Assembly: GCA_048885535.1 (NCBI GenBank)
Contig: JBHLLO010000009.1
Location: 2,909 to 66,908 of the forward strand
From: Candidatus Hermodarchaeota archaeon
GTDB taxonomy: Archaea; Asgardarchaeota; Lokiarchaeia; Sigyniarchaeales; SOKP01
DNA: 64,000 bases
Reading direction: 5' to 3'
Shown here piece by piece: positions 21,193 to 54,278 of the stretch. The position numbers and the translations under genes are program-made. The first letter of the stretch is position 1. Every line of letters begins with the position of its first letter. A model generated the notes under the pieces. It was not told the origin of the DNA. It saw only the letters and a program-made list of their open reading frames with translations, and ran no database searches.

Positions 21193-21356
21193 TATTCGAA
21201 ACGGGTATCAAAAATCTTCTATAAGTTTATTGTATGCCCTAATTTCATTAAATATTTTATAAACAGTCTGGCTAGCTTATTATCTAAACTTTAATTACAA
21301 TAAAAAATTAGACTATATATTATAAATTCTTTCAAATTTAACATGATTAATTAAAC

Positions 21357-22628
21357 TTGATTAAAATGAAAATGCAAGAGAAAATTATTGATGATAAGAT
21401 TCATGAAAAAATGACATTGGATAATGTATTTAAAATTTTTAATGAGAATGTCTTTCCAATGTTAAATGAAGAGGAAAAAAATTATTGTCAAGAACTTCAG
21501 AATTTTTGCTTGGAGCTTCATCCAAAAATAGATAAATCTAAAGATGTTTATGAATTATTTCCTGAATTAGGAAAACATGGTTTTTTGCAGCGCATAAATA
21601 AGTGGAAAGATTTCACGCCCTATGGAATGAAAAAAGAAATCTTATTAGGAACACACCTCTCCTTATTAGACCCTCAACTTGAACTAGCAAGATTGGCAAG
21701 TGGAATCCTATGCGGTAACCCTACCTTTCATTATTATACTCACGGAGGTACTGGAGAAACAGTGCAAAAAGTTCAGGATGAGTTAATGTCTGGTGAAAAG
21801 GTTGGATGTATTGGTATAACTGAACCTGCTCGGGGTTCTGATGCCGTTAATATGACTACGATTTGTACAAAAACTGAAGATGGCGTGATTTACAATGGTG
21901 AGAAAGTATACACCACAAATGGACCTAAAGCAGATTATTTCTGTTGTTATGGAGTCTATGACGAAGCTCAACCAAGAGATACAATGGTTCAAGCAATGAT
22001 AAAGCGTGAATTTGGAGTTCAAACCAATCGTCTAAAAATTAATTCAGTTCCACGCGTACATATTGCTCATACGCTTTTAAATAATGTAAAAGTCCCTAAA
22101 GAATATATTTTAGCTGATGATGGATTAGGTTATGTAAGATTGTTTGAAGGATTAGTACCAGAAAGACTTGGAATTATGGGATCTGGAATCGGAATTTGTT
22201 GGGCTGGATTGATATATGGGATTGTTTATACTAACTTAAGGAAACAATTCGGAAAACCAGTTATCAGATATCAAGGAGTTGGCTATGGATTAGCTGATTT
22301 GCTAACAAAATCAACCGCAGCAACAAGTTTAGCACTTCAGGCAGCAACGATCTATGATGATAAAATTCTTTTTGCAGAAAAACCTTCAAAAGAAGCAGAG
22401 AAGTGGTGTGCCGCGATTTCCTCCCAGGGTAAATATTATACAGCGAAACTCACACACGATATCTGTTACGAAGTACAACAGCATATGGGAGGAGTTAGTG
22501 TCACGGATAATACCCCTGTAGATGAGTTAACGGACGTAAGTAAGATAGAGGAAGTTATTGGTGGGGCAAGAAATATCCAACTTCTTCTCATTCAGTCTCA
22601 GATTCAAAGATTTATGAGATTACTCTAA
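21357..22628 (+). CDS. Acyl-CoA dehydrogenase
   Basis: ITEPARGSD, NGEKVYTTNG, RKQFGKP, QQHMGG, IGGARNIQ. Confidence 0.93.
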   Translation: MIKMKMQEKIIDDKIHEKMTLDNVFKIFNENVFPMLNEEEKNYCQELQNFCLELHPKIDKSKDVYELFPELGKHGFLQRINKWKDFTPYGMKKEILLGTHLSLLDPQLELARLASGILCGNPTFHYYTHGGTGETVQKVQDELMSGEKVGCIGITEPARGSDAVNMTTICTKTEDGVIYNGEKVYTTNGPKADYFCCYGVYDEAQPRDTMVQAMIKREFGVQTNRLKINSVPRVHIAHTLLNNVKVPKEYILADDGLGYVRLFEGLVPERLGIMGSGIGICWAGLIYGIVYTNLRKQFGKPVIRYQGVGYGLADLLTKSTAATSLALQAATIYDDKILFAEKPSKEAEKWCAAISSQGKYYTAKLTHDICYEVQQHMGGVSVTDNTPVDELTDVSKIEEVIGGARNIQLLLIQSQIQRFMRLL

Positions 22629-22715
22629 CTTTTTTTTTATTTTAAAATATGTTTTTGAGAATTATCATGTCTAATAGGAAGTCAAATTGATTTTTCAATT
22701 TTTTAGAAAATAATA

Positions 22716-23051
22716 TTATAAAACATCTTGAGGTTGAATCTCTAAAACTTTAGCTAATTTTTGTTTCTTTTTCTCCATTAGTGGACCAGCAGCAGCCGTA
22801 GCAGGGCCTATTGACCCCATTCCAAGTTTATTATGAATTTCCCAGTATGCTTTTTGGTATATATTCACTTTATTACCCTTATCTTGCTTAAATTCTTTTA
22901 AAGCGTCTTGTATTATCTTTTCTGCAACTTTTTCTAATTCTTTTAGTCTCTGATTTATATATTCTCCGGTTATATCCTTCCCCGTAGTAGGATCAATTAT
23001 TCGTTGAATGAGATTCTCATCTTTTCTCTTCAAATTATTTTCTTTGTCCAT
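22716..23051 (-). CDS. Small hypothetical protein
   Basis: 111-aa ORF with natural composition, lying between the acyl-CoA dehydrogenase end and its relic copy. Confidence 0.7.
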   Translation of the reverse strand: MDKENNLKRKDENLIQRIIDPTTGKDITGEYINQRLKELEKVAEKIIQDALKEFKQDKGNKVNIYQKAYWEIHNKLGMGSIGPATAAAGPLMEKKKQKLAKVLEIQPQDVL

Positions 23052-23102
23052 GATTACAATTTAAATAAATTATTCAATTAATCTTTTAATTTTATTAATA
23101 AA

Positions 23103-23216
23103 TCCGTAGATGAGCTAATGGATGTAAGTAAAATTGAAGAAGTCATATAGGGGCAGGGGAATATACAGTTGTTACCAATCCAATCCCAGATTCAAAGATT
23201 CCTACGATTAATATAA
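23103..23216 (+). pseudogene. Relic of a diverged acyl-CoA dehydrogenase 3' end
   Basis: Translates SVDELMDVSKIEEVI*GQGNIQLLPIQSQIQRFLRLI*, colinear with the last 37 aa of 21357-22628 (29/37 identical by my count); internal TAG. Confidence 0.9.
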
Positions 23217-23432
23217 TTATCAAATAATCTTTTTTTCTTTTTAATAATTTTTCAACCAAAAATTTCTAATTCGATTTCTTGAGAAATCGCAACCACTTTT
23301 TTGAATCCCATTTATGCTTCTTTTCCCTGATGAAATATCGTTCTTTAATCCACAACACCCATTGAAAATTCAGACTGACTTTTCTACTATAGGAAGATTC
23401 CCAAGAGATTCAGATATTAAACGCAAATGAGA

Positions 23433-24218
23433 CTATTCAAGAGATTCTGTTTTCCAATTCAATAATTTTAATCCCCGCGATACTTTAAAATATCCTACTA
23501 TACTAATAATCATGCCAGCAATCCCTATAAAGGCTCCCAAATCTATTAATATATCAAGTAAACTCCCTATAAGGGAAAGTGCATACCCGAGGATAATTAG
23601 AAAAAAGCCTTTATTTACATCCCTACTATTCTGCAAATACGGATTTAATTGATCAAAATTTCGTTTCAAAAAATAAAATCCAAGTAAATAAATTACTCCT
23701 CGCCCTAATTCTATTAATGTGGAGGGTAAATTAATAGATGGAACTTGCTCTAGATAAACATCTAAATTATCTATATCAAAGGATGGATCACTAAAGATTT
23801 CCCAGATTATCTCTAAAACATAATTTACCACGAAAATCGCTATAATAAATAAAATAATTCCAAAAACAATACTTATTGAAAAAAATAGATTAGTTTTCTG
23901 ATATTTATCCCGATATGGGATGTTTTGGTTTTTTGCCTTCCTTAATACTATGATAAGGTTAATCACCAAAATATAAAATATTACTTCGAGAATAAAGGAG
24001 GCTATTAATATAGTCCAAAGAGTCGATTGAAATACATTGAAAATCGCTGATGGGGTTGGATCGCGTATTATAGAAAAAACCATTCCAACAGTTGCTACTG
24101 CGATAATCACTGCCGCAATAATTTGAATAATTGAATAAACCCCAATTCGTCTAAATACAATTCCTAAAGATCGAGAAAATGATTGAAATTTATTTATATC
24201 GTTATCTATCATTATCAT
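23433..24218 (-). CDS. Polytopic membrane protein, hypothetical
   Basis: About 6 TM segments. Confidence 0.8.
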   Translation of the reverse strand: MIMIDNDINKFQSFSRSLGIVFRRIGVYSIIQIIAAVIIAVATVGMVFSIIRDPTPSAIFNVFQSTLWTILIASFILEVIFYILVINLIIVLRKAKNQNIPYRDKYQKTNLFFSISIVFGIILFIIAIFVVNYVLEIIWEIFSDPSFDIDNLDVYLEQVPSINLPSTLIELGRGVIYLLGFYFLKRNFDQLNPYLQNSRDVNKGFFLIILGYALSLIGSLLDILIDLGAFIGIAGMIISIVGYFKVSRGLKLLNWKTESLE

Positions 24219-24442
24219 AAATATCTATGAAATTTCTCCCTTGTTTATGAATATAACTCCTCCTCATATAAATAAACATTTCTACAATTATGTATTTCTT
24301 TAATCCTTTTACAAAAATGTATATGATGATCTTAATGCGGAATATTTTTTATTCAAATGAGAATTTACGGTGATTTCTATGGTTACTATAATAACTAGTT
24401 TATGAATTTTTTTTCTTTTCTTTCCTAATAATTTAAATAGCT

Positions 24443-26851
24443 TTATGCTATTTTTTTTTTAATTTCTTTAATTTCATTTCTGATAAAATTTACGCCCTCT
24501 TCATATTTTAAAAAGCTAAAAATTTCTAAAGATCGTTCATAATTTACAAGAGCTTTGTCATAATCCCCTCTAATCTTACATATTTTAGCTAAATTCATTA
24601 GATCAGATGCTACATTCATCCTGTCACCAATTTCCTCATCAATATGCAATGTTTCTTCAAAAAGATCCCAAGCTTTCTCATAATTCTCAATAGAAAAGTA
24701 TATTCTTGCGATATTACTCATTGTTGCTGCTTTATTAGAAAGATCATTTAAATTGTTATAAATTTCTAATGCCTTTTCGTATCTTTCCAGGGATTCCTCT
24801 AACTTTTTAGTGGATGCTAATATACTCCCTATCTTTGTATGAAGTAAAGCGCTTTTATGTTGATCTCCTATTTCTTCTGATATTTCTAAAGCATCTTCAT
24901 AATACTTTGTAGCTATTGCATAGTTTTTTTTAGATGTATGAATCATTCCTATATTATTAAGGTATATTATTTTCATTAGAGGATCTCCTAAAGAGGTTTC
25001 AATTTCAAGTGCTTCTTCATATTGTTTGAGCGCTAAGTCAAGTTTTCCTTGAGCAAGAAAAATAGATCCGACATTGTTAAGACAACCAGCGATCTTTGCT
25101 TTATCTCCTAACCTTGCAGCGACATCAATCGCATCGTTATAAAAGATTAAAGCTTTTTCTAGTTGATTTTGTTCACTAAAGATCCTTCCAATATTATTTA
25201 ATAGAATTACCTTTCCATATAAATCTCCTAATTCTTCTATGACATGCAGCGCTTCTTCATAGTATGAATATGATTTCTCGTAATCTTCTTGTTGACTAAA
25301 AACTCTTCCAATATTATTGAGTAGTGCTGCTTTTTGCTCAAGAGCTCCAACTTGTTCACTGATCTTAATTGCTTCATTATAAGCATCGAGAGATTTTTGA
25401 TAATCTTTTCTTTGTTCATGAATTCTCCCAATATTATTTAAAGCTGTTATTTGACCAAAATCTTGTTTAAGATCTTTTGACATTTGTAATGAATCTTTAA
25501 AATTATCTAAAGCCATATCATAATGTCCTAAAGTCATTAAAACTGAACCAATATTGCTAACATCAGCTGAAATGCCACTCTTATCTCCTAATTCTTTATC
25601 AATATCATAGGCAACCTTATAATAGTCCAAGGCTTTATCATATTCACCTTTAATCTGATTAAATAATCCCAAATAGTTAAGAAAGCGTGATTTGGAGGAT
25701 AGATTATTCTCTTTCTCAGAAATTTCCAATCCTAAATTAGCCACACGCCTGAGGGAATCAATTTGTTTTAAATCGTAATATAACCGACATGAAAAGCGAA
25801 ATTTTTCAATCTCTTGAATGGTTGTATAGATATCTTTAACCCATTCACCAAAACTCGAGATTTTGCTGTCCTTAATATTTCTAATAACATCTTCTATTTC
25901 CTCATTAGGTAAAATAAGGTCCCATATAAAATCATTAAGAAATGTTTTAGTGTTTACTTTAATTCTGATAACCTCAAATTGATTACTAGACCTAATTTCA
26001 GCTAAAACTTTTCCAATTTGAGACTCGAAATTAATTTTCTTTAATTTTTTTGTTTTTCTAACGGACTCTATCTTAGGTGAATCTTCATTAGAGTGCTCAA
26101 TCCAGATTAAACGATTGAGACTGGGTAACTCCTTAAGAGTTGGGCCAATATCGAAATCATCACTTCCCGAATACCCCATAACAACTAAAGTACGGTTGAA
26201 CATCAATGCTGACATTGCAGGTTTTTTAAAAGGTTCAATAGCAAATGTTACTCCTTCTTCTCGTTCTCTTCCTAAAGCACTGATAGTTGTTATAAGTGAA
26301 TCTTGAGTATTCGAATCACTAATAATATTTCGTTTTGATCCATGTATTTTGTAAATTGGGAATTTTCCGTTTTTAATTAGATCGTATGGTTCTTTATATA
26401 AGAGAAAATCTTCTTTAGTGATAACTGGAATAATGTCTTTATGAAAATCGGAATTTAAAATTTTGAGTAATCCTTGTTCAATTAAGTAATCAAAATTAGT
26501 AGTAACCACATAGTGCCCTCTAATTATGGAAAGAGCTAAAAACAAATGAATTAGATTGGGTTCATTAACCAATTCTAAATAATCCATGAATTTTAATTCA
26601 GCATCAAAGATATCCTGAATTTTTTCAATAACTAGCTCATACCTCAATAAGTCTAGTGAAAATAATTCTTCAATCTCTTCTTCGGGTGCAAATAAGTTAA
26701 GCAAGCTCCATACAATTTGCTTAGCTGATGGCATATTTGTTGGAGCATCCATCGAAATCCCAGCCCCTACTAAAAATGTGTATTTTTCATTAGTTTTGAA
26801 TAAATCACTAATGGTTCCATTAAACTCTGTAAATATCGAATGGCTTGACAA
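24443..26851 (-). CDS. SIR2-like (NADase-type) domain + ~10 TPR repeats
   Basis: FLVGAGIS, VTTNFD, KIHGS, MGYSGSDDFDI; ten ~40-aa repeats of the LNNIG...A...Y..AL.I...LGD type. Confidence 0.9.
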   Translation of the reverse strand: MSSHSIFTEFNGTISDLFKTNEKYTFLVGAGISMDAPTNMPSAKQIVWSLLNLFAPEEEIEELFSLDLLRYELVIEKIQDIFDAELKFMDYLELVNEPNLIHLFLALSIIRGHYVVTTNFDYLIEQGLLKILNSDFHKDIIPVITKEDFLLYKEPYDLIKNGKFPIYKIHGSKRNIISDSNTQDSLITTISALGREREEGVTFAIEPFKKPAMSALMFNRTLVVMGYSGSDDFDIGPTLKELPSLNRLIWIEHSNEDSPKIESVRKTKKLKKINFESQIGKVLAEIRSSNQFEVIRIKVNTKTFLNDFIWDLILPNEEIEDVIRNIKDSKISSFGEWVKDIYTTIQEIEKFRFSCRLYYDLKQIDSLRRVANLGLEISEKENNLSSKSRFLNYLGLFNQIKGEYDKALDYYKVAYDIDKELGDKSGISADVSNIGSVLMTLGHYDMALDNFKDSLQMSKDLKQDFGQITALNNIGRIHEQRKDYQKSLDAYNEAIKISEQVGALEQKAALLNNIGRVFSQQEDYEKSYSYYEEALHVIEELGDLYGKVILLNNIGRIFSEQNQLEKALIFYNDAIDVAARLGDKAKIAGCLNNVGSIFLAQGKLDLALKQYEEALEIETSLGDPLMKIIYLNNIGMIHTSKKNYAIATKYYEDALEISEEIGDQHKSALLHTKIGSILASTKKLEESLERYEKALEIYNNLNDLSNKAATMSNIARIYFSIENYEKAWDLFEETLHIDEEIGDRMNVASDLMNLAKICKIRGDYDKALVNYERSLEIFSFLKYEEGVNFIRNEIKEIKKKIA

Positions 26852-27108
26852 TTCTTATCCCTATACTAAAATGTTGTATGAAAAAATAAATGTCTTAGGT
26901 ATTAATATCTTACTTCAATGTTTAAAACTTTTAGGTACATTATAGGTAAAAAAACACACTACAGTGTAGTCATGCTATATATTGTAACAACAGCAATATG
27001 GATCCTTCGGTAGAGTTGGTTACATACTCCGCTTTGCTGAAGTGTCATAAACAGATCTGAGACTTGTTAAAATGCTAAGATAATTTAAAAAGTAGAAAAA
27101 AAAATTAA

Positions 27109-27567
27109 TTAGATTTTTTTCCTTAAAATTTCTTTAGCTGGAAATACTAAGCCTAGTACTAGCAGTATAGTTCCAATAACGAATATAAACATGCTTCCCC
27201 CGTAATAACCAATAAGCATTTTATAAATTATAAACGTTGCCCAAGGTATACTTCCCCCTAATAAAAGAGCAAACCATGACCATTTTTCACCTTTACGATA
27301 ACTCATGTGATTAATAAAAAGGACAAAAATGCCACATGCTAAAAAGATAAACCCAATTAACTTTTTTGTAATAATATACATTTGGGCATAGACAGGATCG
27401 GTAGTTAAATATACATTATAGGTTGTCCCTGTAAAAACCTCAAAATCACTCACAAACATTATTTCAGTAGCAAATATCCATAATATTGACATTACTACTA
27501 TGTAGGCTCCCATAGCAGAAATAAAAAAAGATCCAATTTTCAACTTTGATGTGTTCATTATTTTCAT
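27109..27567 (-). CDS. Small 4-TM membrane protein
   Basis: Four hydrophobic segments; YRKGEKWSW loop. Confidence 0.8.
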   Translation of the reverse strand: MKIMNTSKLKIGSFFISAMGAYIVVMSILWIFATEIMFVSDFEVFTGTTYNVYLTTDPVYAQMYIITKKLIGFIFLACGIFVLFINHMSYRKGEKWSWFALLLGGSIPWATFIIYKMLIGYYGGSMFIFVIGTILLVLGLVFPAKEILRKKI

Positions 27568-27698
27568 TTAGATTTTTAATGTTGATAATAAAGAGTAAAA
27601 TATAATAACTTTTAAATTGAAATAATTAAATTGAGTAGAACATATATAAAGAAATTAATCCTAATTACTAATTAAACTACTTATTTATAGAAATAATC

Positions 27699-30600
27699 AT
27701 GGAACATGATTTATTCATAAGTTATTCAAGTAAAGATAAAGCAATAGCAGATGCAATCTGTCACACATTTGAAGAAAATAAATTAAGATGTTGGATTGCT
27801 CCAAGAGACTGTCAACCCGGTTCTTATGCAAAATCAATAACACAAGCAATAAAAAGTTCGAAATTGTTAGTTTTAGTCTATAGTAATAGCATTAATTACT
27901 CTGAACATGTTAAACGAGAATTAGATTTAGCAATTAATTATGCTAAAACTATTGTTCCATTTAGAATAGAAGAAGTAAGCCCGTCTCCTGCCATTAATTA
28001 TTATCTTAGCTCAGTTCATTATTTTAATGCAATAACTCTTCCATTAGAATCACATATATTAGAAATAACAAAAATTGTGAAACGTTACCTAGAGATAGAT
28101 AATAGAACACAAAAAGATCTAAATGATTTAATTAAAAAAACTTCTGTTTCTAAAGAAAAAGTCTATGTTATTGACAATTATGATCATGTTATGCACACAG
28201 AGGTACAAAAATCACAATATTTTAGAATGTTAGCACCAGCAGCAACAAAAGGCTCTGTATATCATATTGATATAAAAGAAGGAAAAGTATGTAAGATAGA
28301 GTCAGTTATCAGAGACATTCGAGAAAGCATAATTAAAAATGATGGTTGGATTTACCTAAGCGGAGGTTCAGGTTTATCAAAAACCACTTCTGCAAAAATT
28401 TTGGCTTACAAATTGAAAGGAGAAGGCTTTTCTATTATTTTTACTAAAAAAGTCAAAGAAATTAAGAATTTTATGAATTCTAGTTTAAAAATTAAAAGTA
28501 AAACTCTATTAATAATTGAAGATCTTCATAGAATATCTTATGGTAAAATAAATGAAAAACTACTTTTATTAAATTCTATTACCAATAAGCCGAATGTTAG
28601 CGTCTTATGTATCTCACGTATCCCTTTAGAAAAATTAAAGAGATTTTATATAAGGAATGTAAGAGAAGCACATGAAATAGCAGAAAAATTTAACGAAATC
28701 AAAATGGAAGATTATAAAAGAGAAATTGAAAATGCCAAAAAAGAATTAGTTAAAAAGATATTTCAAGAATTTTTCCCTTTAAATCATATAGAAGAAAGCA
28801 AGATTGATCACTTTCTTAATGAATATGGTGCTGACTTTATTTCACTAGGATTCTCTCTTTTACCAATAATCAATAAAGAGATTAATGATATAAATCAATT
28901 CAATGATTACTTGATTTTTGAAGGTATTTATCAATTTTTAAAGAATGAATTTGAAGAAATTATTGAAAACTATCATATTGATGGAAGAATTCTTCTTGGT
29001 GTCTTTATAGGTGCTTGCTATGAAGCATTATACGATAAGATTGTGACTGTAAATTATTTTGACCAAAATGAAATCTATGAAGGAGATTTATGGATTGCAT
29101 TAGACGCGCTAACAAATCAAGGGCTCTTAACACGATCTAGAGAATGGATTACAAAAAAAAATAATAAGGTTCGTATTGATCAGTTTGGATTAAATCATGC
29201 TAAAATAGCAGAATTTTATATACAAGTATTAAAATCAGGGATTCATTTAAATGAAAAGCATTATAAATGGAATGAGATGGCTATCTTATCTCAATTTAAA
29301 GCAAATTTACCAATTAACTTCGACTTAAAAGAATTTTTTACTTCATTTAATAAGCTTAGAATTATAGACTTATCAAATTCTGGTATTAATGAAATACCTA
29401 AAAATGTAAATAATTTAAGGAACTTAGAAAATCTAATCTTAACTAATAACAATCTAAGATTTCTGCCAGATTCCATTTGTGAATTAAAAAATTTAAATTA
29501 TCTGGATTTATCCTTAAATAAAATGCTTGAATTACCTGAAGCAATTTCTAATTTAAAATCACTTAAAAATTTAAATTTGTATGATAATAAATTGAAAAAA
29601 CTCCCTAATTCCTTTGGGGGCCTCGAATCACTTGAAAAGTTATCTATAGAATTCAATGAATTGACAGAACTTCCAGAAAGTTTCTCAAATTTAAAATGCC
29701 TAAAGAAAGTAAGTTTAGGAGGAAATCATTTGACATTTCTTCCAGATTCTATAGGAAATTTAAACTCATTATTAGTACTAAGCTTATATGATAATAAAAT
29801 AAAAAATCTACCTGATTCTATTGAAAATCTAAATTCACTGGAAACATTGAATTTAATTCAAAATAATATAGAAGAATTACCAAAAACTATCGGTCAATTA
29901 CGAAACTTAAGAAATCTTTATATTAGTGATAACAAACTAAAACAAATCCCGGAATCAATAATTTCATTAGAATTACTTGAAAAATTGGAAGTTGACAATA
30001 ACAATTTAATGGAATTACCTCAAAATGTAGGAGATCTAAAAAATATTACTCATCTTCACTTAGAAAATAATAATCTAAAAGAATTACCCTATTCTATTTG
30101 CGATCTCCTAAAACTTGAAAAACTTTCTTTAAGTAGAAACAAACTAGTATCACTTCCAAAATCAATTGGTAATCTAAAATCTCTGATAAAAATAACTTTA
30201 GGAGAAAACAATTTAACAGAATTACCCTATTCTTTTGCAGATTTGGAAAATCTAAAAGAAATATTTTGCAATAACAATAAGATCGTAGCTCTAAATGAAA
30301 AAATCGGAAACTTAAAAGAACTAATTAATTTAAGTTTGCATGGAAATTTATTAGAATATTTACCAGAGAGTATTTGTAACTTTAAACTCCTTGAAAAATT
30401 AGATTTGGATGCTAATAAATTAAAGATTCTTCCTAAATCGATTGGAGGATTAAAATCTCTTAGAATTTTATATCTCGAGAATAATAACTTAGAACATTTA
30501 CCGGACTCCTTTTGCGATTTGAAATTAATACGGTTAAGATTAAGTGAGAACCAATTAGAAGATCTTCCAAATGATTTTGGAAATCTTAAATTTCTAAGAT

Positions 30601-31043
30601 TTTTAAATCTAAGTTATAATAAATTAAAGAAACTCCCTGAAAGTTTTGAAAACCTTGAGGCATTACAAGAACTATATCTTGATAATAACCAAATTAGTAA
30701 AATCTCATTTCCTATTAACAAGTTAAAGTATCTTGAAGTATTAAATTTATATAATAATGACTTGATTACATTTCCAGAAGAATTATGTTCCTTACCTCAA
30801 ATTGTCTCACTTAATCTAGCTAAAAATAAAATTTCAGAAATCCCTAAATCTATTAAAGACTTAATGAGTTTAAAGAGTTTAGTACTCTCCGATAATAAGC
30901 TAAAAACTATTCCAAAATCGATTAATAAACTAAAAAATTTAAGAGAATTACTTTTAAATAATAATGAATTAAGAAAACTTCCATTTAAGATTAATGAAAT
31001 CGATTATATAGATGATTTACATATAGAGAATAATAAATTATAA
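27699..31043 (+). CDS. TIR - P-loop NTPase (STAND-like) - LRR protein
   Basis: TIR: DLFISYSSKD, CWIAPRD, SEHVKRELDLA; Walker A variant GGSGLSKTT; Walker B LLIIEDLH; 24 full LRRs plus a partial one. Confidence 0.9.
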   Translation: MEHDLFISYSSKDKAIADAICHTFEENKLRCWIAPRDCQPGSYAKSITQAIKSSKLLVLVYSNSINYSEHVKRELDLAINYAKTIVPFRIEEVSPSPAINYYLSSVHYFNAITLPLESHILEITKIVKRYLEIDNRTQKDLNDLIKKTSVSKEKVYVIDNYDHVMHTEVQKSQYFRMLAPAATKGSVYHIDIKEGKVCKIESVIRDIRESIIKNDGWIYLSGGSGLSKTTSAKILAYKLKGEGFSIIFTKKVKEIKNFMNSSLKIKSKTLLIIEDLHRISYGKINEKLLLLNSITNKPNVSVLCISRIPLEKLKRFYIRNVREAHEIAEKFNEIKMEDYKREIENAKKELVKKIFQEFFPLNHIEESKIDHFLNEYGADFISLGFSLLPIINKEINDINQFNDYLIFEGIYQFLKNEFEEIIENYHIDGRILLGVFIGACYEALYDKIVTVNYFDQNEIYEGDLWIALDALTNQGLLTRSREWITKKNNKVRIDQFGLNHAKIAEFYIQVLKSGIHLNEKHYKWNEMAILSQFKANLPINFDLKEFFTSFNKLRIIDLSNSGINEIPKNVNNLRNLENLILTNNNLRFLPDSICELKNLNYLDLSLNKMLELPEAISNLKSLKNLNLYDNKLKKLPNSFGGLESLEKLSIEFNELTELPESFSNLKCLKKVSLGGNHLTFLPDSIGNLNSLLVLSLYDNKIKNLPDSIENLNSLETLNLIQNNIEELPKTIGQLRNLRNLYISDNKLKQIPESIISLELLEKLEVDNNNLMELPQNVGDLKNITHLHLENNNLKELPYSICDLLKLEKLSLSRNKLVSLPKSIGNLKSLIKITLGENNLTELPYSFADLENLKEIFCNNNKIVALNEKIGNLKELINLSLHGNLLEYLPESICNFKLLEKLDLDANKLKILPKSIGGLKSLRILYLENNNLEHLPDSFCDLKLIRLRLSENQLEDLPNDFGNLKFLRFLNLSYNKLKKLPESFENLEALQELYLDNNQISKISFPINKLKYLEVLNLYNNDLITFPEELCSLPQIVSLNLAKNKISEIPKSIKDLMSLKSLVLSDNKLKTIPKSINKLKNLRELLLNNNELRKLPFKINEIDYIDDLHIENNKL
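29355..31040 (+). repeat. Leucine-rich repeat array (~69-bp units, diverged at DNA level)
   Basis: Consensus LxxLxLxxNxLxxLPxSIxxLxx, counted 24 times (23 aa each, one of 22 aa). Confidence 0.95.
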
Positions 31044-31095
31044 AGCCTTTTTAATATTTTAACAATAATATTACTAATTATCGCTATTTTGATAT

Positions 31096-31284
31096 ATGTC
31101 GCATGAAAACAAAATTCTTATAAAATGTCCTAGATGTGGAAGTTTAGATTGTTTTATTGGAGAAATAAACCCTTCTGGGACAACTGATTTAGTTTGCAGA
31201 AAATCAGATTTAGGAAATAGAGGAATTCGTATAAAAGTGACGCTAAAAGGAGATCATACTGAAATATTAGCCTATAAAAGATAG
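31096..31284 (+). CDS. Small Cys-containing protein (zinc-ribbon-like)
   Basis: 62 aa, CPRCGS..C...C. Confidence 0.55.
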   Translation: MSHENKILIKCPRCGSLDCFIGEINPSGTTDLVCRKSDLGNRGIRIKVTLKGDHTEILAYKR

Positions 31285-31299
31285 AGTAATTTTCTTAAA

Positions 31300-31974
31300 A
31301 TGAATTTAAAAATTGATATGCATATACACACTATGTATTCTGGAGATAGTGCCATCAAACCTTCAGAAGCTATAAGATATGCGAAAAAGATAGGATTAGA
31401 TGGTATTGCAATATGCGACCATGGAACATTTAAAGTTCACAAGGTTTTACAAAAAAGATATCATGATAAGCAAGTTATAATTATACCCGCTATGGAAATA
31501 GTCACACATATCGGAGAAGTAATAGCTCTTTTTATAGATAAAGAAATAGATATACAAGATAAAGATTTTTTTACCATTGTAGATAAAATAAAGGATAATA
31601 ATGGATTAATAATTATCCCTCATCCGTTTGATTTTTTACGCAAAACTCACATAAAGGTGAATCTACTTAATAAGAGAGTAATTGAACAATATATTGATGG
31701 AATCGAGATAATGAATTCTCGAATTATATTTAAAAATTGCATCAAACAAGCTCAAGATTTTAATAAAAAGTATAATTTATTTGAAGTTGGTGGATCTGAT
31801 GCACATTTCGTTAAAGAAATTGGAAATGGATATACTATAGTAAGGGATTGTGATAAAACAGAAGAAAGTATAAAGGAAAGTTTAATTAAAAATAAATCTG
31901 TAAGTAAAGGCAGACTATCGAGTCCATTAGTCCATCTAAAAACAAAATTATTTAAACTTAGAAAATTAATTTGA
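31300..31974 (+). CDS. PHP-domain metal-dependent phosphoesterase
   Basis: DMHIHT..SGD, ICDH, PHPF, GGSDAH. Confidence 0.92.
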   Translation: MNLKIDMHIHTMYSGDSAIKPSEAIRYAKKIGLDGIAICDHGTFKVHKVLQKRYHDKQVIIIPAMEIVTHIGEVIALFIDKEIDIQDKDFFTIVDKIKDNNGLIIIPHPFDFLRKTHIKVNLLNKRVIEQYIDGIEIMNSRIIFKNCIKQAQDFNKKYNLFEVGGSDAHFVKEIGNGYTIVRDCDKTEESIKESLIKNKSVSKGRLSSPLVHLKTKLFKLRKLI

Positions 31975-32106
31975 TTAGGTGTTTAAAGTCACCTAGAACA
32001 ATAACTTCTTTTAACTAAGTCATAGCTTTGGAGGATTTCTAAATATTAAAAACAAGCTAAGTGCTAAAGGTGAGTTATGTGAAATATAGAAAAAAAAATG
32101 AATTGA

Positions 32107-32619
32107 TTATTTCTTTTTTAACTTTTTAATTAGAGTTATTATCATTACCATACTCGTTATTCCAATTGTCAATCCAATTAAAATTATCGGATAACCAGAT
32201 ATAAATGGAGTGTAACCTTGTATTGGATATACATTAAATAATACTGTATCGTTTACGTTGCTATTGTAATAATCGCTAACTACTAAATAATATTCTCCAT
32301 CAAGTGTGTGAGAGATAGGGAAAGTCCAATTGTATGAACCAAGATTTACCGTCATAGATGTAACAATATACTCTATAGTTGTCATAGATAAATTATATAT
32401 ATTAATTGATACATAAGGGATAGTTCCTGTATAATCCCAATCAACATGATACCTATTAGTTACAAAACTACAACCAACACATCCATAACTAGTAATATTT
32501 ATGCTTTCTTGTGCTACTGTTTGAGTTGCTATTAATGAGGAAGATAATAGAAACGCAATTGATATTAAGAAGATTAATTTTGAAGCTGTTTTCTTTTTCA
32601 AATTTATACACTTTTGCAT
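32107..32619 (-). CDS. Secreted/surface protein with Loki-CTERM-like C-terminal anchor
   Basis: Signal peptide; Ig-like region (GSYNWT...GEYYLVV); tail ISGYP + TM + KKLKKK. Confidence 0.75.
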   Translation of the reverse strand: MQKCINLKKKTASKLIFLISIAFLLSSSLIATQTVAQESINITSYGCVGCSFVTNRYHVDWDYTGTIPYVSINIYNLSMTTIEYIVTSMTVNLGSYNWTFPISHTLDGEYYLVVSDYYNSNVNDTVLFNVYPIQGYTPFISGYPIILIGLTIGITSMVMIITLIKKLKKK

Positions 32620-32712
32620 GTGTTATTGAATTTTCTTTTAAATTGGATATGGTATTATTTAATACTTAAATATTTAACATTTTTGTAATTACTAAGCAAG
32701 ACAATTTTAAAT

Positions 32713-33498
32713 CTAACTTATAATTAAGCCTATTAGGGATGTGACAATAGATTTCACGCTTATTATAAACAAAAAACAGAAAATAATTAATTGGAATAAT
32801 TTAATAGAAATCTTAGGAGTTATTTTGTGACCTATTTTTGTACCGATTAAAATTATAGGAAATGCCAATAAAACCACATAAATTAACTCAATTGGAAACA
32901 CTCCTCCAAATAAATAAAAAGGAATTCTAGAAATAGATAACACTGTACCTATTGCACCAAAATTTCCAATGAAATCTTCTTTAACGTGTCCTGTTTTTTC
33001 TAGTAAAACTACGTTAAGAGGTCCTGCAGCACTTATTAAACCGGTAAGCAGGCCATAGGTAAATCCACCGAAGAGAATAATGGGAGAGGATGACACAATC
33101 ACTTGTTTTGATTCAGACTGAGTTGAGTTTTTAGTATAAACAATGATTTTAAAAGTAGAATAAATCAAAACAAAAATTCCAAAAACTAATTCAATCCATT
33201 CTGTCCTAATGTTTATGATTAAAAATGTCCCTAAAATAGTTGCTGGAACACCTAAAGACAAAAAACGGAAGAAATATGCTTTATCTAAGTATTTTCGATA
33301 TTTAATGAAGTTAATTAAAGCTGGGAATAATCCCCAAATATTCACTAATATTACTGCTACTTTAATTCCATTATCAATTATTAGCAAATCAATTATGGGG
33401 GTTATAATAGGAATTAAGATCAAGGCATCTCCAAAACCAATTATCCCATATACCATACTTGAGAAAAAGATTGGAATTAGAAGTAAATATTCTAACAT
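32713..33498 (-). CDS. TauE/SafE (TSUP) family membrane protein
   Basis: GIIGFGDALILIP, GLLTGLISAAGP, ~8 TM segments. Confidence 0.88.
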   Translation of the reverse strand: MLEYLLLIPIFFSSMVYGIIGFGDALILIPIITPIIDLLIIDNGIKVAVILVNIWGLFPALINFIKYRKYLDKAYFFRFLSLGVPATILGTFLIINIRTEWIELVFGIFVLIYSTFKIIVYTKNSTQSESKQVIVSSSPIILFGGFTYGLLTGLISAAGPLNVVLLEKTGHVKEDFIGNFGAIGTVLSISRIPFYLFGGVFPIELIYVVLLAFPIILIGTKIGHKITPKISIKLFQLIIFCFLFIISVKSIVTSLIGLIIS

Positions 33499-33597
33499 AA
33501 TTAAGAACTCTCATTCCCCTAAATTGACTTTGAAAATTTAATTAAAAATTTAAGTTTTTATTATTCAAGGATAGAGATTTATAGATACAAAATAACA

Positions 33598-34335
33598 TTA
33601 TAAATCATCTAGTTTCTTTTGAACAGAACGATGATATTTCCCAAATAATAACTTTTTATTTTTTTCGATAAATTTCCAACTAAATCCTTTCAAATTGCTC
33701 AAAGGCCCTTCAATTCCTTTAGGATTCCCGGTTCTTGTGTAAGTAATTTCACTATGTTTTATTGCTTTAATAACCTTATGAGGAGTTTTGTATTGCTCAA
33801 TCAAAGTCTTTGCTTTTTTTGGGCCAATATCAATAAGTCCTTCTACAACAAAAGTCCTTCTTTCTTCAAGACTCATCCCCTTTGGTGCTTTCCGAGCTAG
33901 TAAAGGCACACCATCCTTGATTTGTTCCCTATATGCTATACGTTCAACAACTACCGCTGTGTCTTCGACATTTCTAGTAGGAATAATTGAAACCCCTAAT
34001 TTGTATGATACAAAGGCAAGAGCACCATAAATGGAAGAAATATTCATTCCTACATTGTCAAAAACATCATCATTTAAACCCTCAATAATTAAAATGGGAG
34101 TGATATAGGTTTCTTTTAACCTCATCATTTGTTCGAATAATCGATTATCCATAATTGAAGATACAAAATCGAATCCCTCTTTTCTTTCTATTGCCACTTC
34201 ATTGGAAACTATGATGTCAGCTATATCCAATTGTTTAGTTTCATAAGTGATTCGATCTTTCTTACTTTCAAATATTTTGACTAATTTTTGTTCCCTATTA
34301 TCAATAATAATGTGCGATATTTTATTTTGGACCAT
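33598..34335 (-). CDS. xpf: Short-form XPF/ERCC4 structure-specific nuclease
   Basis: IIDNRE, ADIIV...AIERK...DF..SI.D.RL..Q; HhH GLIDIGPKKA; C-terminal PIP-like QKKLDDL. Confidence 0.9.
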   Translation of the reverse strand: MVQNKISHIIIDNREQKLVKIFESKKDRITYETKQLDIADIIVSNEVAIERKEGFDFVSSIMDNRLFEQMMRLKETYITPILIIEGLNDDVFDNVGMNISSIYGALAFVSYKLGVSIIPTRNVEDTAVVVERIAYREQIKDGVPLLARKAPKGMSLEERRTFVVEGLIDIGPKKAKTLIEQYKTPHKVIKAIKHSEITYTRTGNPKGIEGPLSNLKGFSWKFIEKNKKLLFGKYHRSVQKKLDDL

Positions 34336-34892
34336 TATTCACTCAATTTTTTTCCATCCAGTTCTAATTCTATTTGAGAACTTTTAAATAAAAAATCTTT
34401 GAATTGCTTAAATCTATATAATTTGTTATTTATAAAAATAAAACTCAAAATCGCAAATCCAATAATTTCACTAACATAATTAAATGGTTGATTTAAGAGT
34501 TCAGTTAACCATGAACTAAATGGATCATCCAAATAAAAAAATTGATAGGGGATAAATGGAAATAATATAGGTACGTCTGGTAAATCCAGCAATAAATGGA
34601 TGAGACTCCCTATAAAATAAGATAAAGTAATTACTTTATTTGACTTAGTTATTACATAAATTATTAGAGAGCTAATCAAGACGAAAAGAAGTGTATGACA
34701 ATAACCTCTTCCAGAACTGATTCCTAAAAACATAAGAGACTTATCAATCACGTCAGGAATTAGTGATCCAATAATTAAAGCTAGTCTGTTAACTTGGAAT
34801 CTTTTTTTAATTTGAGGAAATTCAAAAAGTAGTAATGGGATGGCAAGGTGAAATAGTGGATAAATAATTATCACTCCAAAATTAAAATCCAT
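34335..34892 (-). CDS. Membrane-bound metal-dependent hydrolase (YdjM-like)
   Basis: H..., GSLIPDVIDK, RGYCHT, HLLLD. Confidence 0.82.
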   Translation of the reverse strand: MDFNFGVIIIYPLFHLAIPLLLFEFPQIKKRFQVNRLALIIGSLIPDVIDKSLMFLGISSGRGYCHTLLFVLISSLIIYVITKSNKVITLSYFIGSLIHLLLDLPDVPILFPFIPYQFFYLDDPFSSWLTELLNQPFNYVSEIIGFAILSFIFINNKLYRFKQFKDFLFKSSQIELELDGKKLSE

Positions 34893-35052
34893 ATAAAAAT
34901 CTAAAAAATAATATTATTTCTGGCAGAAAGAATATAATTATTGAAATAATAATGAACTCAATAGAGATTTTTAAAGCTCTTTTTATTAGATAAGTGTATG
35001 AAATAACTTTGTGTTCCTTGGTGTCTGACATAGTTTAAATTTATTATTTTTA

Positions 35053-35850
35053 TTAAAACTTAAATTCCTTTAGAATTTCTTCTACAGTATAATTTTGATG
35101 GACTATTTTTGTTAAAGCACTGACCAACTTTGTCGGATCGTCTGATTGAAACACATTTCTACCAAATGCTACTCCAATACCTCCTGCTTGAACTGAATCA
35201 TAAGCAACTTGGAGTAAATCAACGATTGTTTCCATTTTGGGTCCTCCTGCTATTAATACAGGGACAGGAACACTTTTTACAATGTATTTAAAAGAATCAA
35301 TATCTCCAGTATAATTAGTTTTAACGATATCCGCTCCTAATTCGGCTCCGACTCTAACAGCAATATTCACTACTTCTGGATCATTCTCATTAGTGATTTT
35401 TTGACCTCTGGGATACATCATTGCTAGAAGTGGTATTCCCCATTCTCTTGCACTTTCTATAACTTTTTGAGCATCTTGAAGCATTTGGGGTTCCTCATCC
35501 GCTCCGATATTGATGTGAATTGAAACAGCATCAGCGCCTACTTTTAGCGCACTTTCTACGGAGCACACTAATACTTTTCGATCTGGATCTGGCGCTAAAT
35601 TTGTGGCTCCTGATAAATGAATAATCAGTCCTATATCCTTACCATATTTTCGATGTCCTGCTTCAACCATTCCTGAATGCATTAAAACTGCGTTTGCTCC
35701 ACCTAAAGCAACTTTTTCTACCATACTTGCTAAATCTTCCAACCCTTTAATTGTTCCTAAGGTCAATCCATGATCCATTGGAATTATAATGGTTCTTTTT
35801 GTCTTTCGGTCTATTATTCGTTCAATTCTGATGTTCTTTCCAACATTCAA
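35053..35850 (-). CDS. Class I aldolase, DhnA family (2-amino-3,7-dideoxy-D-threo-hept-6-ulosonate synthase / archaeal FBP aldolase)
   Basis: [22 protein letters not shown] (Schiff-base Lys), AGGPK, GRNVFQ. Confidence 0.9.
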
Positions 35851-35942
35851 GTATAAAGCACTTTTTCTTTAAAATAATAATAAGTTATTCACAATTAATG
35901 AGAATTAACATTTAAAATTATATAAATCCAAAAAGAAGATAG

Positions 35943-37514
35943 TTACCAAGGTCTTCTAAGAGTAGTCATTCTACTCATAGCAGATTTGTTGGGATAATCT
36001 AAATTATAATGAATCCCCCGACTTTCCTTTCTAGAGATTGCACTTACTATGATTAATTTAGCAACAGTTGCTAGATTTCTTAATTCAAGTAGATCCCTTT
36101 CAATTTTAAAATCCCAATAATATTGGTTTATTTCATCTTGTAATAAATTTATACGCTTTTTAGCGCGTTGAAGACTCTTGTCAGTTCGGACAATTCCAAC
36201 GAAGTTTGTCATAAAGTGTCTAATTTCATTCCAATTCTGAGTAATTACAACTGCTTCAGTTGAAGGTACAGCATTTCCAGGTTCCCATTCTGGAAATTCA
36301 ATAGTTTTTAAATTTTTCATTCCCTTAGCTATTGTTTTAGCACATTCATGAGCACACACTAAACTCTCCACTAAACTATTAGAGGCGAGTCTGTTAGCCC
36401 CATGTAATCCCGTGCATGCTGATTCTCCTATTACATACAAATTTTTAACTTTAGTAGAACCATCTAATTTTGTAAGTACTCCGCCACAACAATAATGTGC
36501 GGCTGGGACGACGGGTATAGGATCTTTCGTAATATCTATATTAAACTGCATACAAGTTTCATAAACACCAGGAAAATGTGCTTTAATAAATTCAGGGCTT
36601 TTGTATGATGCAATATCTAGTAATACATAATCATCTCCTGATTTTTTAAGCTCAGAATCAATCGCTCGAGAAACTACATCACGAGGGGCTAATTCCTTTA
36701 ATGGATGGTACTTTTCCATAAACAGATTTCCATCCATATCCATTAATATTGCCCCTTCTCCACGTATTGCTTCTGTTATTAGAAATGACTTTGCATAAGG
36801 ATGATAAAGACATGTAGGATGAAATTGATAGAATTCCATATTTGCAATTATAGCTCCAGCTCGATATGCCATAGCAATTCCATCTCCAGAGGCCACATCT
36901 GGGTTTGTTGTATATAAATAAATTTTACCTGCACCACCAGTAGCTAAAACAGTTATCTTAGAAGCAATATTATGAATTTCATCAGAATTTTGATCCAAGA
37001 CATATAATCCATCGCATCTAAAGTTGTTTGAGAATAAGTTAATTCCGACCCAATATTCCTTAATCTCAATATTAACATACTTTTTTACTTCTTCAATTAG
37101 TTTTAATGCTATATTTTGGCCTGTTAAATCGTTTACGTGAAGAACTCTTCTTTCGGAATGTCCCCCTTCCTTTCCAAGATCGTAATGTCCATCTGCATTT
37201 CGAGTAAATTCAACACCTAAATCAATTAATTCTTTTATCATTTCTGGTGCTTGAGTAATTATCTTTCTAACAATATTTTCGTCACATAAACCGTCTCCAG
37301 CTAGTATTGTATCCTGAATATGTTTTTCAAAATTATCATTTTCATTCCATACGCAAGCAATTCCTCCTTGAGCATAAAATGTATTAGATTCTTTCAACCC
37401 TTCCTTTGTAATTATCAGAATATTCTGATCTGGAGCTAACTGTGCTAATTTAATTGCCAATGTTAACCCAGAGATTCCTCCTCCAACGATTAAAATATCA
37501 GTTTTAAGCTTCAA
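35943..37514 (-). CDS. nadB: L-aspartate oxidase
   Basis: GGGISG, SNTFYAQGGIA, EGGHSERR, QFHPT, LAPRDVVSR, AAHYCCGG, HGANRLASNSL, ESRGIH. Confidence 0.95.
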   Translation of the reverse strand: MKLKTDILIVGGGISGLTLAIKLAQLAPDQNILIITKEGLKESNTFYAQGGIACVWNENDNFEKHIQDTILAGDGLCDENIVRKIITQAPEMIKELIDLGVEFTRNADGHYDLGKEGGHSERRVLHVNDLTGQNIALKLIEEVKKYVNIEIKEYWVGINLFSNNFRCDGLYVLDQNSDEIHNIASKITVLATGGAGKIYLYTTNPDVASGDGIAMAYRAGAIIANMEFYQFHPTCLYHPYAKSFLITEAIRGEGAILMDMDGNLFMEKYHPLKELAPRDVVSRAIDSELKKSGDDYVLLDIASYKSPEFIKAHFPGVYETCMQFNIDITKDPIPVVPAAHYCCGGVLTKLDGSTKVKNLYVIGESACTGLHGANRLASNSLVESLVCAHECAKTIAKGMKNLKTIEFPEWEPGNAVPSTEAVVITQNWNEIRHFMTNFVGIVRTDKSLQRAKKRINLLQDEINQYYWDFKIERDLLELRNLATVAKLIIVSAISRKESRGIHYNLDYPNKSAMSRMTTLRRPW

Positions 37515-37636
37515 AGAAATCTTTTTAATAAATTCGAAAAAGAATATTAAAATACCAAAATGAAATTAAAATTTTATATCTTTTTGAAAAGACCATCAAA
37601 ATTTTTTTTAAATTTATAATTTTATCTAAATAGATT

Positions 37637-38161
37637 ATGGGAAAAATAAAGAATGTACTCTTTGTCTGTAGTGGAAATAATTAATAATTAACCATAAATA
37701 CTGCAAGGAGTCCCGCAGCAGAATATCTCTCGAAATGGTTAAAAGAAACAAAATTCAAAAAGGAGTTAAAAGATGTACATTTTCATTCTGCTGGTCTTTA
37801 TAGTTATTACAAGACTCCTCAAGAAGGCACAGCTAATTATCTTGAATCAAAAGGAATTGATTTCAGTGATTTCAAAGGAAAAGAGATTACTGAAGAATTA
37901 CTGAAAAAGCAGGATTTAATCTTAGGTTTTGAAGACAAATGGCATATTAGAAAATTAAAAAGAAGATTCAAAAATCTTAAAGAATTAGATAATAAAGTTT
38001 TCTTGTTATTAGATTTTGCTGGAGAAAAAGGAGACCTCGAAATCCCAGATCCTATGAATTTTGAACCGGAACAGTATAGGAAAATAATTGGAAAAATTGA
38101 AAAGGCATTAATAAAAGTATTACAAAAAATAATCGAAATTAATGAATCTGATCAAAAGTGA
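37637..38161 (+). CDS. Low-molecular-weight protein phosphatase (LMW-PTP/YwlE-like), interrupted by a 21-nt putative BHB intron; 167 aa if spliced. Absent from the ORF track.
   Basis: MGKIKNVLFVCSGN-[insert with TAA TAA]-TARSPAAEYL...SAG...QDLILGFE...IPDPM...; the frame downstream of the insert is intact to TGA 38159-38161. Confidence 0.85.
37677..37697 (+). other. Putative bulge-helix-bulge (EndA-type) intron in mRNA, 21 nt (ATAATTAATAATTAACCATAA)
   Basis: Central 4-bp helix GUGG(37671-74)/CCAU(37692-95); 3-nt bulges AAA(37675-77) and AAA(37696-98); exon stems GUA/UAC and ACUCUUUGU(37657-65)/GCAAGGAGU(37703-11); internal AU hairpin. Cutting after bulge nucleotide 2 restores AGT GGA AAT ACT GCA. 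Confidence 0.75.
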
Positions 38162-38717: not shown

Positions 38718-39275
38718 TTGGATAAATATTTAATGAATAAAATTACTGTCAATAATACTACTATAGAAATACTTATTAATGATATAGTTTCTACTGACAG
38801 TGATGCTATAGTCATTCCAACTAATAGTAAACTCTTACCTAGTGGAACTTTAAGATGCAAAGTATTACGAGGAGCAGGTTCGAAAGTACAGGTCGAATGT
38901 AATAAGATAATCCAGCAAATCTCAAATATTCCCTTAGGAAAAGCAGTTATAACTTCCGGAGGGAACCTTAAGACTAAATATATAATCCATACTCGGGCGG
39001 GTCATGATAAAAAGAAATTAATGTTATCTACATGGAATGCATTAAAGTTAGCTGATCAGAAACAAATAAGATCAATCTCTTTTCCTCCGCTTTCAATGGA
39101 TGTTATTATCTTTAATGCTCAAATTTGTGCTGAAATAATACTTTCAACAATAAAAAAATATCTCTCTGAAACTAATTCGAATATTCGAAATATTATGGTT
39201 TATCTTGAAACCCTTCCTGATTATAAAGACTTTGAAAGGATTTTGGAAAAATTAAATCCGGAACTTTCTATGTAA
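38718..39275 (+). CDS. Macro-domain protein with degenerate ADP-ribose pocket
   Basis: DI...DSDAIV..., GKAVITSGGNLKTKYIIH, SISFP; canonical NAAN/GGG/GIFG motifs are replaced. Confidence 0.85.
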   Translation: MDKYLMNKITVNNTTIEILINDIVSTDSDAIVIPTNSKLLPSGTLRCKVLRGAGSKVQVECNKIIQQISNIPLGKAVITSGGNLKTKYIIHTRAGHDKKKLMLSTWNALKLADQKQIRSISFPPLSMDVIIFNAQICAEIILSTIKKYLSETNSNIRNIMVYLETLPDYKDFERILEKLNPELSM

Positions 39276-43548: not shown

Positions 43549-43663
43549 TTTTTACAATCTTAATTTTCAATTTTTGAACGTATAATCCCTTCTAAATATA
43601 CAATTGATCCTATTCTAAATTTAATATAGTTATTAATCCAAAAATAATGATATAAAAAATAAA

Positions 43664-44818: not shown

Positions 44819-44830
44819 AATTTTATTTAC

Positions 44831-45877: not shown

Positions 45878-45943
45878 TTCTATACGCCCTTTAATCTCAT
45901 TTTTAAAGTAACTAATTTAAAATAAAAAAATAAATTTGGTTAT

Positions 45944-54256: not shown

Positions 54257-54278
54257 AAAAAAGAGATGATGAATTAAA

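Follow-up and report, generated by a model that had tools for sequence, protein, structure and literature searches.

A predicted NLR-like TIR-NTPase-LRR protein in an Asgard archaeon, from a small STAND-like family with interchangeable N-terminal domains

nSTAND3 is the NTPase of Avs5, a protein built as SIR2-nSTAND3-TPR/Sel1/PPR that resembles SAMD9 (PMC12931631). The heads of bNACHT proteins include TIR, SIR2, calcineurin-like phosphoesterase and trypsin peptidase, and in bNACHT16 mutations at the His443-equivalent residue inhibit bacterial growth (10.1101/2022.07.19.500537). Prokaryotic proteins similar to NLRs, receptors that combine nucleotide binding with leucine-rich repeats, typically lack LRRs according to Dyrka et al. 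(10.1101/2020.01.06.895854), LRR standing for leucine-rich repeat. A census of STAND proteins from 2026 names TPR-like, WD40 and FGE sensors, and the term LRR is absent from its main text (10.64898/2026.01.04.697583). For Asgard archaea, Leão et al. apply the term NLR to NACHT proteins, in a text with neither "LRR" nor "Avs" (PMC11291487). Here we describe a gene for a protein in which a TIR domain, a P-loop NTPase module and an LRR solenoid follow each other. It lies in a 64,000-nucleotide stretch (the window) of contig JBHLLO010000009.1 from Candidatus Hermodarchaeota archaeon (GCA_048885535.1), positions 2,909 to 66,908 of the forward strand. Our literature searches found no paper describing this TIR/NTPase/LRR family.

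The gene probably encodes a cytosolic single-protein sensor of the NLR/Avs type, with a function predicted from architecture and family, that belongs to a small and apparently Asgard-restricted clade of STAND-like proteins. Its reading frame, given in a first-pass annotation made from the letters alone, was confirmed with its 1114 codons (Table 1).

Relatives share an NTPase-LRR chassis and exchange the N-terminal domain

Out of 1.84 billion representative proteins, an exhaustive phmmer search with aa 150-560 matched 11, the query among them. The ten others were eight proteins spanning most or all of the module, which were 27-38% identical to the query across it, and two short fragments. Seven of the eight run past the module and all seven bear C-terminal LRRs; P0094 ends within the module. 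Seven different N-terminal arrangements were found among the eight relatives: a zinc-ribbon with DUF4062 (P0088), a long, apparently helical region without Pfam match (P0089), a 400-residue region of no known type (P0090), DUF4062/TIR_2 (P0091), Metallophos (P0092), a head of no known type (P0002), EAD11 (P0093) and Trypsin_2 (P0094). This result showed that the relatives keep the NTPase-LRR chassis and swap the N-terminal effector, bearing out the effector-NTPase-repeat layout that the first-pass annotation had read from one protein.

Members with a taxonomic label came from Sigynarchaeota, Promethearchaeota and Odinarchaeota, which are all Asgard, and the remainder were metagenome proteins, so far as sequence collections tell suggesting a small family confined to Asgard archaea. 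Word-index protein searches for further members gave P0088 alone or nothing new, and a single-protein search of genome contigs gave no relative. The distribution over Asgard genomes, a check suggested in the first-pass annotation, was patchy. Among 400 genomes of the phylum, a convincing match was found only in the own genome and in one of the 399 others, G128, a genome of the same class whose match is of the Metallophos form and 36% identical; two more matches were weak and broken by stops. None of the 41 same-genus genomes had a match, and the own genome held no paralogue of the NTPase module.

In a stretch of G128 (contig C9, L020, 335-16327), the Metallophos-NTPase-LRR gene keeps company with those of a 1093-aa DEAD/Helicase_C protein, a 939-aa protein with C-terminal TPRs behind a 650-aa N-terminus without assignment, and a 458-aa LRR-only protein. 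This group may be a defence cluster.

The nine NTPase modules of the query and its relatives were aligned alone (alignment A2); the profile of the full-length alignment (A1) gave PDB matches dominated by LRR proteins. Columns G73, S75, G76, S78, K79, T80, D126, L127, H128, S157 and R158 of A2 were invariant. Both motifs named in the first-pass annotation, the variant Walker A GGSGLSKTT (aa 222-230) and Walker B IIEDLH (aa 272-277), were found. Walker A reads GxSGxSKT in all nine full-module members, with Ser for the usual Gly in 9/9. Because this Ser is invariant among members only 27-38% identical, it is a family trait and not a lesion. In Walker B the query has E274-D275 (LLIIEDLH), whereas all eight relatives have D-D (hhhhDDLH). 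The invariant Ser-Arg follows strand 4 and would occupy the position of the sensor-1 Arg of STAND/AAA+ proteins. His500, within "HAxIAE", was kept in 8/8 sequences reaching that position and is a candidate for an MHD-like winged-helix His in contact with bound nucleotide. The extension in front of the P-loop core was conserved in all nine members whatever their N-terminal domain, with invariant N, Y, M, F and I columns.

Pfam gave only weak P-loop matches in the middle region (AAA, E 1.4e-3; RuvB_N, E 7e-3). The nSTAND3 cut-off was passed by five of the eight relatives (P0088, P0089, P0090, P0091 and P0002; 27.4-35.5 bits) and missed by P0092, P0093 and P0094. In an ESM-Atlas feature search with aa 150-545, the ten best named clusters were all nSTAND3 or nSTAND_NTPase5 (scores 0.92-0.95; 178-193 of 256 features).

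The AlphaFold model of aa 150-560 (pLDDT 86.2, pTM 0.84) has five parallel strands alternating with helices, then a helical bundle, then a winged helix with a hairpin before His500 (in the numbering of the model, helices 187-294 and hairpin 329-348). Foldseek matched the module to Orc1/Cdc6 (E 1.3e-7), SAMD9, PAB2304, MalT, ZAR1 and Sr35, and full-length fold matches also included NRC2, Dark and the STAND-TPR protein 6mfv. The P-loop/STAND fold expected in the first-pass annotation was thus recovered, as the succession of nucleotide-binding domain, lid and winged helix of STAND/ORC-type ATPases. The "helical linker" placed before the LRRs in that annotation is helical, but the model resolves it into a helical lid and a winged helix. 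Judged by the definition of STAND proteins that is reportedly that of Leipe et al. in 2004, the protein has a P-loop with K228, E274 and D275, a nucleotide-binding domain with a helical domain and then a winged helix behind it, and the effector-NTPase-repeat layout. Our reading is that the module is an nSTAND3/Avs5-like STAND by architecture, weak profiles and fold, not cleanly split from AAA+. We term the predicted NTPase nSTAND3-like and do not file the protein as an nSTAND3 member.

Pfam TIR_2 matched aa 6-110 of the head with 65.6 bits (cut-off 28; E 7.4e-18), and the catalytic-position Glu proposed earlier is in place, within VKRELDLA at aa 71-78. This residue, Glu74, pairs with the Glu of "QKELD" in the bacterial PdTIR (PDB 3h16, E 2.6e-4), and its column is presumably that of the catalytic Glu of NADase TIRs. 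Glu74 was invariant in 86/86 TIR homologues, as were F6, I7, S8, W32, S68 and V71. A model from 25 sequences (pLDDT 90.3) has the flavodoxin-like TIR fold. Foldseek matched it to SARM1 (TMq 0.69), SPARTA TIR-APAZ (0.74), C. elegans TIR-1, RUN1, PdTIR, AbTir, RPP1 and RPS4, and to the adaptor TIRs MAL and MyD88 as well. The head is a predicted NADase, for which we infer NAD+ cleavage. The closest TIRs (44-53% identical) were found in bacterial TIR-TPR proteins and in 6 of the 399 other genomes of the phylum. In the own genome, tblastn at E 1e-3 or better found the query alone; Pfam gave nine TIR_2 matches there, and the other TIRs are far more distant.

The LRR tail consists of 24 regex units spaced 23 residues apart and one 22-residue unit inside a 45-residue gap. 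The total is 24 full repeats, of which 23 have 23 aa and the other has 22 aa, with the C-terminus formed by a partial 25th of 14 residues, so the earlier count of 24 was essentially right. The consensus is LxxLxxLxLxxNxLxxLPxSI, and aa ~560-1114 matched the Pfam profiles LRR_14 (E 2e-73) and LRR_8 (E 7.8e-64). Mean identity between units was 38%. Recent tandem duplication of the units was ruled out, as no tandem repeat was found at the DNA level. No transmembrane segment was found; the maximum 19-residue hydropathy was 1.47, and therefore the protein is predicted to be soluble. By eye, the C-termini of P0088, P0089, P0090, P0091 and P0092 have a short, alike cap after the LRRs (~...L..L...G..V...). 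A search downstream of the query's stop for a frameshifted cap gave no remnant in any frame.

An intact accessory gene

Further intact copies of the gene were present on contigs of three other samples, with 12 single-nucleotide polymorphisms (six synonymous and six non-synonymous), and no stops or indels were found within it across the four sample assemblies. The 1114-codon frame stays open in a genome of 30% GC. Gene GC was 25.8% against a mean of 31.6% for open reading frames (ORFs) of at least 300 aa (2.4th percentile). At third codon positions (GC3) the value of 16.9% placed the gene at the 2.3rd percentile among 1165 such ORFs, and at positions 1 and 2 it was at the 6.9th percentile. The AT bias arises in part because the protein is rich in L, N, K and I. 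The AT-richness noted in the first-pass annotation is therefore real, yet modest and partly a matter of amino-acid composition.

When window 20000-38000 was searched at the DNA level, matches were found in all 41 other same-genus genomes, and among the 150 matches listed (229 others unlisted) none lay within 27700-32090. A 152-aa membrane gene and a 170-aa gene, 4.5 kb apart in the window, have orthologues in G262 with 85 bp between them (87% aa identity for the membrane gene). In G261 the flanking matches are 611 bases apart, and the order is membrane gene, 129-aa gene, TauE-like gene. Both genomes are without the TIR, PHP and SIR2-TPR genes of the window and have housekeeping genes nearby instead. 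The accessory origin put forward earlier is upheld by the absence from all 41 same-genus genomes, the gap at the syntenic site of close relatives and the low GC3. As a separate observation, the acyl-CoA dehydrogenase orthologue of G261 (contig C17, L016, 3159-4463) is apparently split into ORFs of 275 and 150 aa.

Flanking direct repeats and tRNA genes, looked for as marks of a mobile element, were not found. A misassembly or chimera behind the insertion was ruled out, because contigs of other samples bridge the junctions at even depth: the X2 contig of 13,386 nt spans 26000-33500 with 11 differences and the X3 contig spans 27274-33500, both samples being from the same study and so not fully independent. 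We concluded that the gene is real, intact and accessory.

Proposed mechanism, known systems and alternative explanations

The interchangeable heads, and parallels to Avs proteins, bNACHTs and the TIR-NB-LRR receptors of plants (TNLs), lead us to propose the following mechanism. The LRR solenoid would bind a foreign, probably viral, protein. Binding would lift autoinhibition, and the NTPase would then bind nucleoside triphosphate (NTP) and oligomerise. The oligomer would gather the TIR domains into active NADase sites, and loss of NAD+ or an NAD-derived product would arrest or kill the infected cell.

Avs5 (AVAST type 5; EfAvs5, PDB 9jap, and PaAvs5) has a SIR2 effector where the query has a TIR, and a TPR/Sel1/PPR sensor where the query has LRRs (PMC12931631). 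The query further differs from Avs5 in its score under the nSTAND3 cut-off, the invariant Walker A Ser, an N-terminal extension of its own (DNYD...YFR) and an Asgard-labelled family. Like the query, bNACHT16 is a prokaryotic effector-STAND-LRR protein, and bNACHT effectors are of the same classes as those on the query's family. The first-pass annotation gave TPR or WD40 as the usual sensors of prokaryotic STAND defence proteins, and such a rarity of LRRs agrees with 10.1101/2020.01.06.895854 and 10.64898/2026.01.04.697583; bNACHT16 is a published exception. The NTPase of bNACHT16 is, however, a NACHT and the protein is bacterial (10.1101/2022.07.19.500537), whereas the query's family is archaeal and has no match to NACHT (PF05729) in the query or its relatives. 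SAMD9/SAMD9L (human; PDB 9zjr, 9zjs) and Orc1/Cdc6, the latter replication initiators, are alike at the fold level only, with 9-17% identity and unrelated flanking domains.

Plant TNLs such as RPP1 (PDB 7crc) and ROQ1 have the same order of TIR, NTPase and LRR, and share the TIR fold and the catalytic-position Glu; the plant NB-ARC modules ZAR1, Sr35 and NRC2 were among the fold matches of the NTPase. Unlike them, the query has no NB-ARC match, its LRRs are strictly regular 23-mers where plant LRRs are irregular, and it has no post-LRR (C-JID) domain, ending in LRR 25. In plant TNL pathways, EDS1 and helper NLRs act as partners. NB-ARC (PF00931) gave no match at E <=0.01 for the query or at E <=0.001 for its eight relatives, and the nearest profile is nSTAND3. 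Since the NTPase is of a different STAND lineage (nSTAND3/Avs5-like), the likeness to TNLs is best explained by convergent assembly, as the first-pass annotation had supposed, and not by descent of the whole protein.

Another protein of the same organism, a 1730-aa LRR-TIR on contig C47, has the same outer domains (LRR and TIR_2), but in reversed order, without an NTPase switch and with a distant TIR.

Several points weigh against a defence sensor. The query scores 23.8 bits with nSTAND3 (PF20720) on aa 210-275, under the cut-off of 27.2, and the best solved match of the A2 profile among PDB sequences is RuvB (E 1e-4), with no STAND. The Walker A Ser stands at a position that is Gly in nearly all P-loops, Walker B is E-D, and NTP binding is a prediction. 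The C-terminal cap is absent, the protein stopping inside LRR 25, and the LRR type is like that of SHOC2, LRRD1 and LRR proteins of Leptospira, scaffolds and not immune sensors. PADLOC-DB v2 gave no full-length model match but only partial ones: SAVED_TIR on aa 4-80 (E 9e-11), PDC-S66 (5.3e-5) and mad8 (1.4e-3). The surroundings of the gene do not form a dense defence island; its neighbours are mostly housekeeping genes. The sensor function itself is one that we infer.

Some of these points would suit an ATPase with a regulatory or scaffolding part in the cell biology of Asgard archaea, a reading we consider unlikely. Such a protein might act in signal transduction, in self/non-self or partner recognition or, within consortia, in regulated cell death. 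Its LRRs would then bind a host protein, and its TIR would serve as adaptor or metabolic switch. The fit of the LRR type to the cytosolic scaffolds SHOC2 and LRRD1, the lack of a known defence system match and the housekeeping neighbours would all be expected, as would a genome rich in small GTPases, gelsolin and LRR proteins (12 ORFs with at least six LRR motifs). A core function, however, is expected to be conserved, yet the gene is gone from 41/41 same-genus genomes and lies within an indel. Interchangeable heads (protease, phosphoesterase, TIR-like, EAD11) typify conflict systems (PMC8195603). The invariance of the catalytic-position Glu also counts against this reading.

Two-component signalling, in which the TIR would not kill through loss of NAD+ but make an NAD-derived messenger, as in Thoeris or plant TNLs, that activates a separate effector such as the adjacent SIR2-TPR protein, appears quite unlikely. 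A SIR2-TPR gene stands beside TIR-repeat genes twice in the genome, in the window and on contig C47, where a 35%-identical paralogue lies between the LRR-TIR gene and one for a 1016-aa LVIVD-TIR protein, and a Macro-domain gene lies 7.7 kb downstream of the TIR gene. Signalling by TIR domains is well known from Thoeris and from plants. A Thoeris-like pair was nevertheless rejected, because the loci of the 20 closest SIR2-TPR orthologues, 312,850 bases in all, were free of TIR ORFs, six of the eight SIR2-family genes of the own genome are on contigs without a TIR ORF (the two others adjoin a TIR gene), and the TPR neighbour of the G128 relative has no SIR2, nor has that relative any SIR2 neighbour. 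SIR2-TPR proteins are a large paralogous expansion (8 ORFs in the genome, 134/400 phylum genomes, 41/41 in the genus), so chance or a clustering of defence genes could account for the adjacency. The protease and phosphoesterase heads in the family argue for direct effectors, and ligand-sensor domains, SLOG and SAVED included, were not found nearby.

A further-reaching view of this LRR-sensing, head-swapping Asgard STAND lineage seems improbable to us: the effector-NTPase-LRR logic of eukaryotic NLRs would have been in place in the archaeal relatives of eukaryotes, and the lineage, with its SAMD9/Avs5-like NTPase, would have given rise to a family of eukaryotic immune NTPases, or be its sister, and not just look like it. 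The invariant GxSGxSKT P-loop could then mark a distinct nucleotide-switch mechanism.

Very improbable is a decaying gene with a dead switch, which the Ser at the Gly position, E274 against Asp in all eight relatives, the lost cap and the nSTAND3 score under the cut-off might suggest, for the Ser is invariant in 9/9 at 27-38% identity and thus a selected family trait, the long frame is open at 30% GC, without stop or indel in four sample assemblies and with 6/12 polymorphisms synonymous, and K228, T229, D275, R307, H500 and E74 are all kept.

Neighbouring genes and significance

The coordinates of the gene, its parts and its neighbours are given in Table 1.

Table 1. Features of the TIR-NTPase-LRR gene and its surroundings in the window
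Feature	Position in window	Strand	Basis or remark
Whole gene, TIR-NTPase-LRR protein	27699..31043	+	1114 aa, ATG start; ORF list and Pfam
TIR domain, aa 1-116	27699..28046	+	TIR_2, Glu74 invariance, model
Glu74 codon	27918-27920	+	catalytic-position Glu
Long helix linking TIR to NTPase module, aa 116-148	28044..28142	+	DSSP of TIR model; pLDDT drops towards helix end
N-terminal extension of NTPase module, aa 159-215 (DNYD...YFR...VYHxDI...RIE)	28173..28343	+	alignment of nine members
P-loop NTPase core, aa 216-333	28344..28697	+	invariant columns, model, sub-cut-off nSTAND3
Walker A GGSGLSKTT, aa 222-230	28362-28388	+	motif
Walker B LLIIEDLH, aa 270-277	28506-28529	+	motif
Sensor-1-like Ser306-Arg307	28614-28619	+	invariant in alignment
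Helical lid and winged-helix domain, aa 334-545	28698..29333	+	model; His500 in HAKIAE just past wing hairpin
LRR solenoid, 24 full repeats and partial 25th, aa 550-1114	29346..31040	+	regex and unit table
Accessory segment, ~4.5 kb	27617..32090	.	missing at syntenic site of close relatives; TIR gene, 62-aa ORF, PHP gene
SIR2_2 + TPR gene, 802 aa	24443..26851	-	divergent; no P-loop / NTPase
62-aa Cys-rich ORF (CPRC...C...C)	31096-31284	+	between TIR and PHP genes; candidate gene
PHP gene	31300-31974	+	co-inserted with TIR gene
GTPases, gelsolin-repeat, Macro-domain genes	15610-16170, 18400-19317, 39299-39901, 38718-39275		

The SIR2-TPR protein upstream presumably resembles the DSR-type SIR2 sensors. 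Its closest orthologues, 59-61% identical, are from another genus. On contig C47 (L013, 2475-17088) the paralogue is 799 aa long, the LRR-TIR protein has ~52 LRR motif hits, the LVIVD-TIR protein is a beta-propeller, and the stretch also encodes a VWA protein.

The PHP gene was found in 213/400 phylum genomes, and its sister-genus copies are 48-61% identical. Yet 0/41 genomes of the own genus and 0/54 of genus g12 have it at E 1e-15 or better; at E 1e-10 or better, 40/41 other same-genus genomes had no match and one had a 26%-identity match. It looks as if this genome re-acquired the PHP gene along with the TIR gene. As a dedicated partner it was rejected: eight orthologue loci held no TIR, NTPase module or copy of the 62-aa ORF, which has no homologue in them. 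The absence of TIR and NTPase from these loci makes the PHP gene a passenger. The SIR2-TPR and PHP neighbours are thus not conserved partners of the TIR gene.

Elsewhere the window encodes eukaryotic signature proteins of the Asgard type, namely a gelsolin-repeat protein and two small GTPases of Ras/Roc/Arf type, together with the Macro-domain protein. A run of ~11 ORFs at 43126-61215 (including ones of 1117, 723, 564, 548 and 533 aa) had no Pfam match at E 1e-8 or better, the sole exception being a metallo-beta-lactamase-fold protein at 56537-57568.

LRR sensors are a hallmark of plant and animal NLRs and are reported to be exceptional among prokaryotic NLR-like STANDs. The clade joins a divergent nSTAND3-like NTPase to LRRs in every member extending past the module, with interchangeable heads, and the member in the window has the full plant TNL domain order in an archaeon. 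An LRR-using clade that appears Asgard-restricted, an invariant Ser-type P-loop and a TNL-convergent order make the family notable. The family bears, as a further data point, on the debate over eukaryotic immune modules in Asgard archaea, in which the evidence here favours convergence. If active, the protein would be an archaeal test case in which LRRs recognise a pattern and a TIR NADase provides the output, and it would give a handle on what Asgard viruses expose to their hosts.

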